Source: Botryllus schlosseri (taxonomy: Eukaryota). From it: a stretch of 64,000 nt of DNA. This document shows, in pieces, positions 37,461-62,987 of this stretch. The DNA lies in assembly GCA_051294905.1 (NCBI GenBank), contig CM119371.1, positions 36,334,001 to 36,398,000 on the forward strand. Direction: 5' to 3'. Made by a program: the position numbers and the translations under genes. How positions within the stretch are numbered: the first letter of the stretch is position 1; the number at the start of each line of letters is the position of its first letter. The notes under the pieces are model-generated. The model saw nothing but the letters and a program-made list of their open reading frames with translations, did no database searches and was not told where the DNA came from.

Positions 37461-37464
<4 letters not shown>

Positions 37465-37778
37465 CGCTTATGAGATTATACCAGCAAAGAAATCAAGGAT
37501 TGCAATTGACAGAGATGTCGAGAATTACAGCTTCTGATGTATACGACATTATAGAGAGGGTTGATTACAAGACTTGGAAAAGATTTGCTCGAGATCAACT
37601 TAAGTTAACAGACTTAGAAATTGCTGATTGTGAATACGCGGATCCCAAGAACTTAACTGAACAATGTTATCAAATGATACAAATATGGGTTCGTAAAAAT
37701 GGTCGATGTGCTACAATTGACAGACTCGATGAATTAGCTAATAGTTGTATGTACGATTGTACTACCACACGGAATTAG
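37461..37778 (+). CDS. Death-domain-only protein (Polinton cargo)
   Basis: IIERVDYKTWKRFARDQLKLTDLEIADCEYADPKNLTEQCYQMIQIWVRKNGRCATIDRL fits the death-domain pattern W-K-x-x-A-R..L..I..E-Q-x-Y-Q-M-x-x-x-W..A-T; frame stays open 34 codons after the TAG (to 37883). Confidence 0.8.
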
Positions 37779-37913
37779 CTCGAGAAGAAAAATGAGAACA
37801 GTCCATTTGATTTACCGTTATCAGATTTGAATGTCTCAATGAGTTTACCGTTGGGAATTAACGCGCCAAAAGTTGTTATTTAAACACCACTACGAGTGAG
37901 CGAGACCTGAGAA

Positions 37914-38081
37914 ATGGATATACTTCTGAGTGAAGACTCCGATATCGCGTTCTACGTGATATTATGCTCTTGCATTAAAACCTATTGCTGCATCAATATA
38001 TACAAGAAGAAAAGAGATTCCGAGATTGCAGAAGCTTGCAACGACCTTAAAGCTGCTATCTGTAAAGTCTTCGGGCAATGA
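37914..38081 (+). CDS. Small Cys-rich hypothetical protein (55 aa)
   Basis: MDILLSEDSDIAFYVILCSCIKTYCC..; stop overlaps next ATG (ATGA). Confidence 0.35.
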   Translation: MDILLSEDSDIAFYVILCSCIKTYCCINIYKKKRDSEIAEACNDLKAAICKVFGQ

Positions 38082-38275
38082 AGCTAATATTCATAATATT
38101 CTTATTGATGCTAAATTGGAAATCAACGGATGCTCCGGAATTAATATACCCTTTCACCGTGAAATATCACGAAGAGGACTGCTTAGCTACTGAGCAAGAA
38201 GCAATGAAATTGATTTTACGTTATATCGCGGCATATTCTTTGACTAACTGTACGCATATTGAAATAAACTATTGA
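38078..38275 (+). CDS. Small putative secreted protein (65 aa)
   Basis: Signal-peptide-like MKLIFIIFLLMLNWKSTDA, two Cys; ATGA coupling to upstream ORF. Confidence 0.5.
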   Translation: MKLIFIIFLLMLNWKSTDAPELIYPFTVKYHEEDCLATEQEAMKLILRYIAAYSLTNCTHIEINY

Positions 38276-38484
38276 ATGATGATTTGCATTGTCTTGACTC
38301 GACTTTGTTAGGTTGTGCTTTCAGTGCCATATAGTGCTACTATAGCTTCGTGGTTCTGCTACAATTTTACTAACACTAAAGCTTTGAGAATAGAGAGAGA
38401 CACAAATGTAGGATGAGATTTTATTATTCAGACCAAATATGAATTTACCATTTATTTTCCATTAACACATATTCAACCAGTAAT

Positions 38485-59610: not shown

Positions 59611-59695
59611 TAACTATCGTTGCAACCGCGCTGTTATTTCTGGAATTCTTATTATATACGCTATTTTGCTGTGGAGAAGAATGTGAACGTAAATC

Positions 59696-60037
59696 ATGAC
59701 TATGGCTCGCATTTGTATTGGTCCCCTACGCTTGAGTAGTAATGGAGATCGTAGCTATTATGAAAAAACGATTGTATTACCGAAAGTGAGATCTATCACT
59801 ATTCCTTTCTCATGTGAAATAATGTATCGTACCAATAAGATCGTAGTGAAGAAACTGCATGTTCCTCACTACGGTAAGATTGAATCTCCGACAATCACTG
59901 TCTGCAAAGACAAACATTACTGTTTACCGCGTACCTGTCCTATTCTTATAGAATTTAAAGGGAATGCGATCGTTGTAAAAAATATAATCGTATTCGAAGC
60001 GTTACACAACGCGCGATTTTATGATGCTTGTTATTAG
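59696..60037 (+). CDS. Small beta-rich hypothetical protein (113 aa)
   Basis: ATG ORF with upstream TATA-like ATTATATA and downstream AATAAA (~60052). Confidence 0.6.
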   Translation: MTMARICIGPLRLSSNGDRSYYEKTIVLPKVRSITIPFSCEIMYRTNKIVVKKLHVPHYGKIESPTITVCKDKHYCLPRTCPILIEFKGNAIVVKNIIVFEALHNARFYDACY

Positions 60038-60121
60038 TTTGATATGTCTGTAATAAAATCGCAAAACAACTACGGCTCCTCATTCGTGTTCTAGTCAGAT
60101 ACAGCATCAATAGAAAAGTCG

Positions 60122-60192
60122 TGGAGACTACGGGAATTGAACCCGTATCTTCTATTTGCAAGACAGATACTCTACCATTGAGCTAAGTCCCC
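60122..60192 (-). tRNA. tRNA-Ala(UGC), 71 nt, inside the Polinton
   Basis: GGGGACT-TA-GCTC-AATGGTA-GAGT-A-TCTGT-CTTGCAA-ATAGA-AGAT-ACGGG-TTCAATT-CCCGT-AGTCTCC-A; all stems pair; G3:U70 and A73 Ala identity; TTTT 4 nt downstream. Confidence 0.9.
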
Positions 60193-60301
60193 ATTCAGAC
60201 GAATAACAACGCAACCAGACGTTGATTTTTATTATTTATTACAAGAACAATACGGAATGTATAATGCAATTCCACGCTACTCGCGGTGGATCAAAACAAC
60301 A

Positions 60302-62987
60302 CTATTTTTCTTGCTGGGTGACTTGCGTATCTTCCATTGCATGTCTACGGGTATATTGAGTAGCTAGTTGGAAATAACGTTCCTTATTTTTTAAATACAT
60401 TTCTGCACTCTCTTGATCCATCGGATCATAAGGGTTTGGTGAAGCGAGCAATGAACGTATTGATATCAGTAGAGTGGACGTTGTCATCGCTGGTGACCAT
60501 TCCTTCTGTAAAATATCGACACATATGGTACCTTTACAGCTTACGTTAGGATGGAATATCCGTGTTTCAAATCGCATTTTAGGAGGCTTGAATGGATACT
60601 CGGTAGAATATTCGATTGATAATCTGAACACACCACCTTCGTAGCAGTGATGAGCACCGGAGCGGAGTCGGAGTGGATCCGGAGCGGAGTTTTGCCAATT
60701 TTGTGATACCCGGAGTGGAGTCGGAGTTTACAACAAATATTTTTCCGGAGTTTTACGGAGTATTGTAAGTTTTGCCCCCGATATCTTTCGATAGCTTTGA
60801 CCAGAAGACACTATTGATTAGAAACCAAAACACAGACAGTTGACACCTTGTAAAGTTGTAATATGACGGGTAACATGCAAAAATGATTGCCAAGTGCATA
60901 AAAATCAGCCATCTGCACTGCAATTGGGGACTGGAGAGTAACCTAGTGATCTAGCAAGGCATTTCCGTTGAGCAGTGTCTGTAGTTCACAAACTTGAAGG
61001 CACCCAATATCATTCGCAGTGCATCATTTGCTCCCTGCCTTGAGATGCAGTCTTTGAATCCACTGCTGAATGTCACCATATTATGAGATAAGATCTCCAG
61101 AATCTTCCACGTAGCTGTCATTGCAGTCTTCTATAGTTTCATTACATTCCTCCTTGCGTATTTGTTTCGTGACTAATTTTCATGCTACCCCAGTAATTGT
61201 GCGAAACATTCACAATCAGCAGCATACAGCGGGGCTTCCCTATGGTACAGCCTTTAGCTACCCTGATTCTTCCAGAAAGTTCATGATTATAACGGAGTAT
61301 ATCCCATTATCCTGATGACCTTCAACATAGTAATAGGTCCATTTTGTGAAAATGTATTCTCAACGTTGGTATCAGTTGAAACAAGATAATATCCGATACC
61401 ACTTTTGTGATAACTTTTCGCAACTTTCATCGTACTTGCAATTTGCAGTGAGAGATATCGATAATAAGTGTTACATCAATATTACCTTTATATCTGTGAG
61501 AAATATACATACAACAAGCAAGTATCTGGATGGAAACAATAATAACTTATGCAATGTGTTACATGATTTAATGATTGCATTTCTGAACAGCCACACTAAA
61601 CAACTACAACCATCTGCTCTGCTCTGCTCGCATCAACTCAACTACGCTTCCTTCAATATTGATTGACGTAGTCAGTCATCCAGAACTCTTCTGAATTTTC
61701 GTCATGTAATGTTTGGTTTGATTGAGAAATGACTTTGATGTGATATGAAAAATCAGCACCGCAATCAAGTTTCTGCTGCTGGTCTGTCTCAGACTCCAAA
61801 TTCCAGATATCATGTATCAGCTTCAAAATTGGAAGTCACTAGTCATTTAGTCAACTCCAAGGAGCGTCGATCGGTGCGTCAGTGATGCATCATGTTTGTT
61901 TAGTGCAGTGCGGTTCCATCAACTGTTTCATGGCGATGCGGAACTCAATTTACTGAAACCTGTGATGTGATTGTCGATTTCAGTGGTGTTAGTGGTAGTT
62001 AGTTCGAACTGACTGGTCTTCCTTCGTCGTTTTAATATAATGGCTGAAGCACCGTCGACGTCAAGTGGGTTACTCACAAAGACGCAAAAAAAGAGTGACG
62101 TGTGGAAGGATTTCACTCTGGTGCTGCATGATAATAACGGCCAGTATACCGGGTTTGCGAGCTGTCAAAATTGCAATGTTCAGCTAAAGCATCACAAGTT
62201 GACAAGTGGTACGCCGCATCTTCGAAGACATATTGAAGCGTGTAAGAAGAATTGATCGCAGTTGAAGAAAGTTCCTTTCTTCCAACAAAAAAGTAAGCAA
62301 GAAATCAAAGGAGAAGGTGATCATGGGGAACACTGATCGCCGGGTGGAGAATACCGAAGAAGTGCCGGTTTGCTGTGGTGTTGTGCAGAAGACGTTTTGC
62401 CATCCAGATTTACGGTGAAACGTAAGTTGGATGAGGAGGCTTTTTCTTTGAAGCAGAAGCTGTCAGAGGAACTAAGAGTTGCTATCAAGTGTTATGGGCT
62501 GGCTGGCATCACCACAGATATGTGGACCGATCTAAAGGGTCGCAGTTCTATTAGCTTGACTGTCCATTTTGTTGGAGAGAACTTGACTCTCAGAAGTAAT
62601 GTTGCGACTGTTCGGCAATTCACGGATACTAAAAAACTGGTATGAATATCAGACAGGCTATCGAAAACATCGATTGGGATTCTTCGACAATGGTCTGAAT
62701 ATGTTTCGGAGACTGGACAAGATTGTCCGGGTTATCTCGGAGTCTGGGATTGAGATCCCCGGAGTCCGAGGGACTTTGCCTCAGAGGCCAAAGTTGTCGG
62801 AGGGACTCGGGAGTCTCGAAAAGCAGACTCCGCTCATCACTGCTTCGTAGGGCGTTCCGTTTGGTCCTTGGATCGTTGCCCACCAACTATACATATTCTT
62901 TTCATCGAATGGTCCTGCTCGGATACCTTCGTAAGCATTCTGCTTAAATTTTGCTTGTTCATATATCAAACGCTTCAAAGCACGCAT
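60302..62987 (-). pseudogene. UBE2D/UBC4-like E2 ubiquitin-conjugating enzyme, intronless, split by a hAT insertion
   Basis: 62987-62843 (MRALKRL..GP..NMYSWWATIQGPNGTPYE) joins 60636-60302 (GGVFRLSI..YPFKPPK..RIFHPNV..GTICVDIL..WSPA) in frame; HPN and catalytic Cys intact. Confidence 0.93.
60645..62842 (+). mobile_element. Internally deleted hAT (Ac-like) transposon with BED finger remnant
   Basis: TIR CAGTGATGAGC / GCTCATCACTG; perfect TSD CTTCGTAG; BED finger KSDVWKDF..C..C..GTPHLRRHIEAC (62040-62255); TTDMWTD..SLTVHF (62370-62645). Confidence 0.92.

Follow-up and report, generated by a model that had tools for sequence, protein, structure and literature searches.

A young Polinton family of Botryllus schlosseri carries conserved death-domain, BIR, metacaspase-like and ubiquitin-conjugating enzyme genes

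A 64,000-nucleotide stretch of the Botryllus schlosseri genome (NCBI GenBank assembly GCA_051294905.1, contig CM119371.1, positions 36,334,001 to 36,398,000 of the forward strand), here called the window, carries an integrated Polinton/Maverick, an adintovirus-like element, at 34576-64391. The element belongs to a young family of about 14 copies (family 1). Within its terminal inverted repeats (TIRs) lie genes for a death-domain (DD)-only protein, a protein with a single BIR domain, a C14 peptidase that is metacaspase-like by sequence and predicted fold, and a UBE2D-like ubiquitin-conjugating enzyme (E2). These four cargo genes recur together in sister copies and are under purifying selection. 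It is fairly probable, in our view, that this conserved accessory set controls host cell death and ubiquitin signalling during replication of the element.

The cargo had been picked out in a preliminary description made from the sequence alone. Its four domain calls (Death, BIR, Peptidase_C14 and UQ_con) all score above the Pfam gathering scores, and its placing of the genes inside the element is confirmed, the four of them lying within the true TIRs at 34576-64391. The cargo genes and the small open reading frames (ORFs) beside them are the following, with protein lengths in amino acids (aa):

37461-37778, plus strand: death-domain-only ORF, 105 aa (Pfam Death, E 1.5e-10)
38485-39063, minus strand: ORF192, unknown protein, beside the BIR gene in three Polinton families
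39142-39495, minus strand: single-BIR protein without RING, 117 aa (Pfam BIR, E 7.2e-11)
58870-59610, plus strand: C14 peptidase, 246 aa, with a His79/Cys131 dyad (Pfam Peptidase_C14, E 2.4e-13)
59696-60037, plus strand: ORF113, unknown small protein, with a 48%-identical ORF beside the E2 gene in family 2
60302-60644, minus strand: C-terminal part of the E2, with the HPN motif and catalytic Cys (UQ_con, E 2.1e-24, at 60302-60577), aligning with bases 138-480 of the sister E2
62843-62987, minus strand: N-terminal part of the E2, its frame starting MRALKRL...TPYE; contiguous with the C-terminal part in sisters
63153-63479, minus strand: ORF108, unknown small protein by the right TIR, present in sisters

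Co-occurrence and selection of the cargo genes

The genome search covered 495 Mb in 219 contigs, and six sister copies were fetched and aligned to the window. The C14 gene gave 16 matches: 13 over the whole length (96-100% identity), a single partial one, and two at 67%. Each of the 16 has a Polinton capsid-gene match no more than about 2.2 kb away. The same own-genome search returned Polinton copies only, leaving the host caspases unmatched, so that C14 is Polinton-borne only in this host genome. The DD, BIR, C14 and E2 genes are found together, at fixed spacing, in 11 of the 13 copies with full-length C14. In the readable copies, the motifs are intact for the BIR zinc site (7/7), the C14 dyad (7/7) and the E2 HPN...C motif (6/6, each reading HPNVSCKGTIC). 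The possibility of host genes that merely neighbour a transposon was excluded, since the genes are inside the TIRs and recur in copies with other flanks and other target-site duplications (TSDs).

The ratio of nonsynonymous to synonymous substitution rates (dN/dS) was determined by pooled pairwise Nei-Gojobori comparison of gap-free copies (2-7 per gene, natural sequences, the pairs not being independent). Within family 1, the cargo values are 0.18 for C14, 0.13 for the E2, 0.41 for the BIR and 0.66 for the DD gene, with small counts for the last two. The core genes give 0.18 (packaging ATPase), 0.22 (capsid), 0.19 (protease), 0.23-0.30 (PolB) and 0.31 (integrase). Between families, synonymous sites are near saturation, the proportion of differing sites being 0.54-0.87 for synonymous (pS) and 0.2-0.47 for nonsynonymous positions (pN); where dS is computable, the ratio is 0.32 for the DD and 0.12 for the E2. 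The near-saturated synonymous sites and much lower pN, together with the within-family ratios, exclude neutral decay, and the cargo genes are under purifying selection. Two checks proposed in the preliminary description, co-occurrence in sister copies and departure from neutrality, thus both came out in favour of a conserved cargo.

The cargo proteins

The DD-only ORF scores 41.5 bits against the Death profile (cut-off 22.6), and its closest solved structures are the death domains of FADD (E 2e-6 in PDB), TNFR1 and RIPK1. Its conserved part begins at M19 (position 37515). In five family 1 copies the match begins only at residue 18, in keeping with Met19 as the true start of the protein. The nearest relatives outside the Polintons form a cluster of five single-frame genes of 520-570 aa at C8:2.35-2.40 Mb. 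One of these (C8:2400501-2404500) has a 569-aa frame with an N-terminal Death domain and a caspase domain (7.6e-32), and is a host DD-caspase. Read from Met19, the Polinton ORF is 59% identical (44/75) to this host protein read from Met16. The cluster is a likely source, or target, of the Polinton gene. In Hydra, a DD-caspase is reported to be recruited to FADD filaments (10.1101/2019.12.13.875351). Given this recruitment and the 59% identity to a host DD-caspase prodomain, the sequence suggests a prodomain decoy as the most economical reading of the DD-only protein.

The BIR reaches 42.9 bits with PF00653 (cut-off 22.9) and has the zinc pattern CX2CX16HX6C; its closest solved relatives are NAIP BIR3, XIAP BIR2 and DIAP1. 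No RING was found by Pfam in the 117-aa ORF, which stops just past the BIR. The gene thus encodes a BIR-only protein and not a ligase-type inhibitor of apoptosis protein (IAP), as the earlier term RING-less BIR had implied. The neighbouring ORF192 has homologous ORFs of 183 aa in family 2 and 162 aa in family 3. It gave no Pfam match and no homologues beyond the Polinton families, and its model (pLDDT 57.6) showed no fold match at E<=0.001.

A profile built from five C14 sequences matched eight solved sequences at E<=1, all of them metacaspases or the bacterial GSU0716 (best E 3e-12), and no caspase was among the solved sequences at this threshold. The AlphaFold model, based on 20 sequences, has a pLDDT of 91. 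Its top folds are metacaspases with TM-scores of 0.71-0.75, followed by caspases (~0.57-0.59), MALT1 (~0.53) and legumain, all behind the metacaspases. By sequence and by its predicted caspase-hemoglobinase fold, C14 is therefore metacaspase-like, not caspase-like, in agreement with the first assignment. Its catalytic-Cys motif is AQCYSG, as compared with DSCHSG in the aligned Arabidopsis metacaspase 4, the acidic residue two positions before the Cys being absent; in more distant relatives the consensus is mostly D-x-CHSG. Metacaspases are Arg/Lys-specific and often Ca2+-dependent, and the conserved acidic residues D96, D103, D108, D109 and D138 of C14 may form a Ca2+ site.

Public relatives of C14 are few at close range. 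A word-based search gave four proteins at 50-88% identity, and one public relative is 85% identical to the family 3 C14. The exhaustive profile search yielded 4629 relatives at E<=0.001, only six of them at E<=1e-30 and all six unnamed proteins. A cluster look-up of 10 of these proteins returned no informative names. No relatives were detected in the IMG/VR and JGI metagenome scans or in PHROGs, and NCBIfam gave a single sub-threshold match. Proteins with look-alike features are short caspase-domain proteins of bacteria and phages, which we take as a lead only. The gene directly follows those for capsid, protease and ORF105, all on one strand, and family 3 keeps this order.

In sister copies, the E2 gene is an intact, intronless ORF of 159 aa (UQ_con 1.4e-46, 158 bits). 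Its closest solved relatives are UBE2D2 and UBE2D3 at about 1e-45, and the best 60 are almost all UBE2D1/2/3 or yeast Ubc4, which bears out the earlier UBE2D-like assignment. The preliminary description had counted four intronless ORFs. This is correct for the uninterrupted sister gene, and does not apply to the E2 of the window copy, which is in two pieces with a 2.2-kb insertion between them. An intron was excluded as the cause: the gap is filled by a transposon that has inverted ends of its own, is flanked by an 8-bp duplication and is missing in 6/6 aligned sisters. In the examined family 3 end, which has no E2, no ORF113-like ORF of at least 75 aa was found.

Transcription

Four RNA runs were mapped on the right 6.4 kb of one sister copy, a region without the DD and BIR genes, about 6-13% of the runs being read. 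Run X16 (~6% read) gave 136 reads at >=95% identity, nearly all of them covering the E2 ORF with its flanking sequence, about 5-18 deep. From a second run, 12 reads mapped at scattered positions, and the other two (X20 and X12) gave none. The X16 reads all share four differences from the reference, and of the 136, 126 lie only partly on it. In four reads, a loose tail that we take to be a template-switch oligo begins 14 nucleotides (nt) upstream of the E2 ATG. Eight reads skip 131 nt, with GT..AG borders on the E2 minus strand (L013:4650-4782) and a length that is not a multiple of three; they could represent a spliced isoform or reads from a paralogue. An E2 of the Polinton kind is transcribed somewhere, and nothing further is concluded. 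Expression had been another check named at the outset; it was borne out for an E2 copy or paralogue and not for C14, which has almost no cover. Runs X7, X8 and X10, which carry two other organism labels, contain 0.64-0.68 of the sampled 31-mers of the sister right 6.4 kb, like the organism A runs. Near-identical copies may accordingly exist under other species labels.

Related families and dispersed cargo

Three further Polinton families carry related cargo in other combinations. Family 2 (12 capsid matches at 85-86% identity) has a DD gene, an ORF192 homologue and a BIR gene at one end, and an ORF113 homologue, an E2 gene, a small ORF and a Bcl-2 gene (PF00452, 2.7e-17) at the other. Each of the 11 E2 matches of family 2 lies about 0.9 kb from a Bcl-2 match, and no C14 gene was found in this family. 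A further 45 capsid matches stand at 65-72% identity, including the two copies of family 3. At one end, family 3 has a DD gene with a stop, homologues of ORF108 and ORF192, and a gene for a 206-aa BIR protein. The other end encodes the protease, a homologue of ORF105, a C14 at 67% identity and a triple-BIR protein of 397 aa. Many of the remaining matches at 65-72%, a fourth family of about 45 copies, co-locate with a BIR gene (211-aa frame) and a Bcl-2 gene. The Polinton families thus exchange cargo modules such as Bcl-2 and the triple-BIR gene.

ORF108 is 92% identical between families 1 and 3 (family 3 copy L030:1464-1787), as against 30-67% for the other shared genes, and lies at opposite ends of the two elements. 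This identity and placement suggest a recent exchange of a terminal gene between the two families.

Cargo-type genes are also dispersed outside complete elements. At C5:28128501-28140800, the two arms of a 5.9-kb inverted duplication (99.7%) each contain a DD gene of the family 2 type (95 aa), an ORF of 91 aa and a Bcl-2 gene of 176 aa. Similar inverted pairs of DD and Bcl-2 genes, spaced 3-15 kb apart, occur by the dozen across the genome and look like foldback-type derivatives of Polinton ends. At C3:29435501-29442500, a gene for a 564-aa IAP with three BIRs and a RING is followed 1.7 kb downstream, on the same strand, by a 151-aa UBE2D-like E2. The two are separated by small paralogous ORFs, and upstream of them is a fragment of an IS1595/ISXO2-type transposase. 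At least 16 BIR/E2 pairs of this sort are dispersed in the genome, which indicates that IAP and E2 also move as a pair on another, unrelated mobile unit. A tandem array at C1:34.12-34.49 Mb contains about 20 intronless UBE2D-like E2 frames, 55-71% identical to the Polinton E2.

Possible roles of the cargo set

From sequence we infer the biochemical roles of all the cargo proteins as well as the anti-death direction of their action. The DD-only protein, a stand-alone form of the host DD-caspase prodomain, would be a probable decoy at FADD/DD platforms, in the style of vFLIPs and CARD-only proteins. The RING-less BIR protein would probably bind caspases or IAP antagonists. The UBE2D-like E2, with its intact active site, probably feeds host RING ligases such as IAPs. 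For C14, our guess is a late-cycle cleavage of host signalling proteins, because its gene directly follows the capsid and protease genes and shares their strand.

Several observations weigh against such a set of death-restraining proteins. The intact caspase-like dyad of C14 fits a pro-death role at least as easily. The acidic residue two positions before the catalytic Cys (D-x-C-H-S-G) is linked to Arg/Lys preference, and with AQCYSG instead of DSCHSG a metacaspase-type substrate preference cannot be assumed for C14. Two of the 13 copies (C16:4.87 Mb and C1:40.53 Mb) have C14 and E2 with no DD or BIR match. The DD ratio of 0.66 among close copies is high, on few changes. The fixed differences and partial placement of the E2 reads mean that these may stem from another copy or a paralogue, and C14, capsid and protease have near-zero cover in the mapped reads. 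The window copy itself is inactivated, so that functional statements concern the family and not this locus.

The cargo could instead form a timed death or lysis module, in which C14, perhaps nucleated by the DD protein, kills the cell for particle release, and the BIR protein and E2 restrain it until late. The dyad intact in 7/7 copies fits this view, as do the position of C14 behind capsid, protease and ORF105 on one strand, kept in family 3, and the short bacterial and phage caspase-domain look-alikes, if that lead is followed. However, family 2 has BIR, DD and E2 next to Bcl-2 without C14, and the fourth family has BIR and Bcl-2; the presence of BIR, DD and E2 in families without C14 shows that they do not depend on it. 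Bcl-2 and IAP homologues in viruses are also usually anti-death. A lysis module is for these reasons considered unlikely.

It is improbable that the cargo genes are passengers, host gene fragments caught by chance and functionless for the element. The DD gene is clearly kin to the host DD-caspase prodomain, its ratio among close copies is 0.66, and the genome is full of mobile DD, BIR, Bcl-2 and E2 gene copies. Yet the cargo ORFs are open in nearly all young copies, C14 and E2 are constrained like core genes, the catalytic and zinc motifs are conserved, and orthologous cargo ORFs persist across families with saturated synonymous sites.

A toxin-antidote or addiction pair, with C14 as toxin and the BIR protein as antidote favouring retention or drive of the element, would agree with the presence of a protease and a protease-binding domain on one element and with reports that Mavericks have transferred protease and kinase genes between nematodes (PMC11131425; 10.1101/2022.07.12.499685), but is highly improbable with the two genes at opposite element ends and with BIR lacking C14 in families 2 and 4.

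Beyond the preferred reading, that the accessory set controls host cell death and ubiquitin signalling, a broader picture is possible and is offered tentatively. This Polinton lineage may carry a self-contained, modular death-control circuit, made of a host-derived DD-caspase decoy, a BIR-only protein, its own UBE2D-type E2 with ORF113 as a dedicated partner, and a C14 of non-animal ancestry found nowhere else in the host genome. Sister families would swap in Bcl-2 or multi-BIR genes, and derivatives would have seeded hundreds of DD, Bcl-2, BIR and E2 genes.

Structure of the element and its core genes

The element spans 29.8 kb, from a left terminus at 34576 to a right terminus at 64391, 391 bp past the end of the window. 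The uninterrupted sister on C2 is 19,490 bp long, and the greater length here is due to four nested insertions. The size of about 19 kb given earlier is that of the uninterrupted sisters and does not hold for this copy, which is also wider than the interval of 37461-62987 first assigned to it. A 6-bp TSD (TGCATT) flanks both ends of the window copy, and the left terminus reads 5'-AGTAG.... Three sister copies have other 6-bp TSDs (TTCAAC, CCTATT and CAGGGT), and no TSD was seen at an older copy on C5. The TIRs of the window copy and its sisters measure about 380-450 bp with 5'-AG termini (382 bp at 97% identity in the C2 sister). In the window copy, the reverse complement of the right terminus matches the outer 146 bp at 100% identity; over the inner 279 bp the identity is 89%, with one indel. 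A left end at 37151 was considered and dropped, as sister TIRs extend 137-146 bp further and this part is displaced to 34576-34721 by an insertion. Besides the cargo, the element contains the following features:

34576-34721, plus strand: outer 146 bp of the left TIR, aligning with the left end of the C2 sister; TSD immediately upstream
34722-37150, no strand assigned: insertion 1, 2.4 kb, hAT-like, inside the left TIR; not in sisters; termini CAGACATGGGG.../...CCCCATGTCTG; 8-9-bp target duplication
37151-37429, plus strand: inner part of the left TIR, pairing with 64254-63953 (89% in an alignment of 302 columns, 23 of them gaps), and also with sister right arms
40173-41711, plus strand: unknown large ORF upstream of PolB, 3' end cut by insertion 2; the sister frame runs further; no Pfam match
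41712-43792, no strand assigned: insertion 2, 2.1 kb, hAT-like, missing in 6/6 sisters; termini CAGGGCTGTGG.../...CCACAGCCCTG; 8-bp duplication ATCTCAGA
44605-46987, plus strand: N-terminal 794 aa of PolB; the sister frame spans the site of insertion 3; weak C2H2 match
46988-50626, no strand assigned: insertion 3, 3.6 kb, splitting PolB; not in sisters; 8-9-bp duplication
50662-52122, plus strand: C-terminal 486 aa of PolB; PF03175 among homologues
52151-52771, plus strand: packaging ATPase (Pfam PF04665 Pox_A32, E 2.3e-10, above cut-off)
53662-54420, plus strand: rve integrase (PF00665, E 4.4e-13), 252 aa here and 334 aa in sisters
56777-58055, plus strand: major capsid protein gene, in frames of 310 aa and 107 aa here and of 425 aa in sisters
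58052-58513, plus strand: probable adenain/Ulp1-type maturation protease, 153 aa; behind the capsid gene in family 3 as well
60645-62842, no strand assigned: insertion 4, 2.2 kb, hAT-like, splitting the E2; not in sisters; termini CAGTGATGAGC.../...GCTCATCACTG; 8-bp duplication CTTCGTAG
63953-64000, minus strand: start of the right TIR, the remainder to 64391 lying beyond the window

The Polinton/Maverick identity proposed in the preliminary description is upheld by the TIRs, the 6-bp TSD, the rve integrase, the A32-type ATPase and a PolB linked to PF03175. The C-terminal part of PolB has 199 longer homologues at E<=0.001, and PF03175 (DNA_pol_B_2) is present in 38 of the best 120 listed. Direct scans of PolB against Pfam, PDB sequences and PHROG gave no match, which fits a divergent PolB class. 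Residues 195-202 of the N-terminal part read DNLCLFRC, a motif noted by eye, and a C2H2 finger occupies residues 297-319. This OTU-like Cys motif and the finger fit the OTU-like domain and zinc fingers of adintovirus-type PolBs, as far as such motifs allow; no OTU domain was detected there by the Pfam scan. The sister integrase ORF combines rve with a chromodomain, and its alignment with the window copy has 19 gap columns. The capsid protein has a weak double jelly-roll (DJR)-like match (PF21738, E 0.03, below cut-off). The proteins most like it in features belong to large animal 'F54H12.2' clusters, where 14-24% of the proteins have PF21738. The 153-aa protease shows a weak match to the S273R cysteine protease of African swine fever virus (ASFV; E 0.024) and none in Pfam.

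The window copy is dead. Its four nested insertions interrupt the left TIR, the unknown ORF, PolB and the E2 gene, its integrase is shortened, and its capsid gene is split in two frames. All four insertions are hAT-like, as judged from their own inverted termini and 8-bp (or 8-9-bp) duplications. The inverted ends of insertion 3 are 130 nt long (46987-47116 and 50497-50626) and 92% complementary. Sequence matching the end of insertion 4 (query residues 1-30) is found at many sites across the genome, and the frames of this insertion resemble, by eye only, a BED finger and a transposase remnant, Pfam being blank. Four hAT-like insertions in one copy that is still 98-99% identical to its sisters point to very recent hAT activity. 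Outside the element, the left, repeat-rich half of the window has reverse transcriptase and RNase H retroelement frames at 16166-18187 (minus strand) and an exon for a fibrinogen C-terminal domain at 12424-12852 (minus strand).

Relation to known systems

The closest known systems are the adintoviruses, which share PolB, the rve integrase and the FtsK/A32 ATPase with the present element, and whose capsid genes and adenain have probable counterparts in it. The adintovirus paper describes Bcl2 and IAP homologues as accessory genes and an OTU-like domain at the N-terminus of PolB (Starrett et al. 2021, PMC8502044), and the genome maps of its supplement label IAP and Bcl2. Leafhopper adintoviruses are likewise annotated with IAP in a 2026 preprint (10.64898/2026.07.28.741253). 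In the present element, the BIR gene is joined by genes for a DD-only protein, a UBE2D-like E2 and a metacaspase-like protease. Within the available main text and supplement of PMC8502044, neither a caspase nor a ubiquitin-conjugating enzyme is mentioned, and 'death' occurs once, in the main text, with the meaning of pyroptosis. The combination had first been thought undescribed. For IAP together with Bcl2 this no longer stands, the adintovirus genes having been published; for DD, E2 and metacaspase cargo in Polintons, no report was found in full-text literature searches, whose coverage leaves out most subscription journals. In the same searches, Polintons and ubiquitin-conjugating enzymes appear together only in work on a mirusvirus. 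Polintons with anti-apoptotic accessory genes are thus already known, and the new parts are the candidate DD decoy, the E2 and, above all, the metacaspase-like protease.

Each of the four proteins also has counterparts elsewhere. In baculoviruses, entomopoxviruses and iridoviruses, viral IAPs usually combine one or two BIRs with a RING ligase domain. The Polinton protein resembles them as a virus-borne BIR with a full zinc-binding pattern, but has 117 aa, a single BIR and no RING, the E2 being a separate gene. The DED-only vFLIPs and the CARD-only ICEBERG and COP are prodomain-only decoys. Like them, the Polinton DD ORF appears to be a free-standing recruitment domain of an initiator caspase, to judge from its 59% identity to the host DD prodomain; unlike them, it is a death domain and not a DED or CARD, and it is carried by a Polinton. 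C14 has its best sequence and fold matches, and the His-Cys dyad, in common with metacaspases (Arabidopsis MC4/MC9, yeast Yca1 and T. brucei MCA2). It differs from them in its 246 aa without N-terminal prodomain or long linker, its AQCYSG motif and its location on an animal mobile element. Finally, ASFV encodes an E2, UBCv1. Both are cases of a DNA virus or virus-like element with its own E2 bearing an active-site Cys, whereas the Polinton enzyme is nearest to UBE2D2/D3 and travels with BIR, DD and the small ORF113.

Polintons are thought to be animal viruses, and to our knowledge almost nothing is known of how they handle host defences. The present family offers a compact, testable set of candidate host-control genes, among which a metacaspase-type protease in an animal setting and a predicted death-domain decoy of a DD-caspase are unusual. 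The family also shows that mobile elements can multiply the apoptosis-regulator genes DD, BIR, Bcl-2 and E2 to hundreds of copies, which bears on how the 'immune gene expansions' of invertebrates are read. If derivatives of these elements have indeed seeded such genes across the genome, much of the annotated expansion of the apoptosis and immunity repertoire would be mobile-element cargo.

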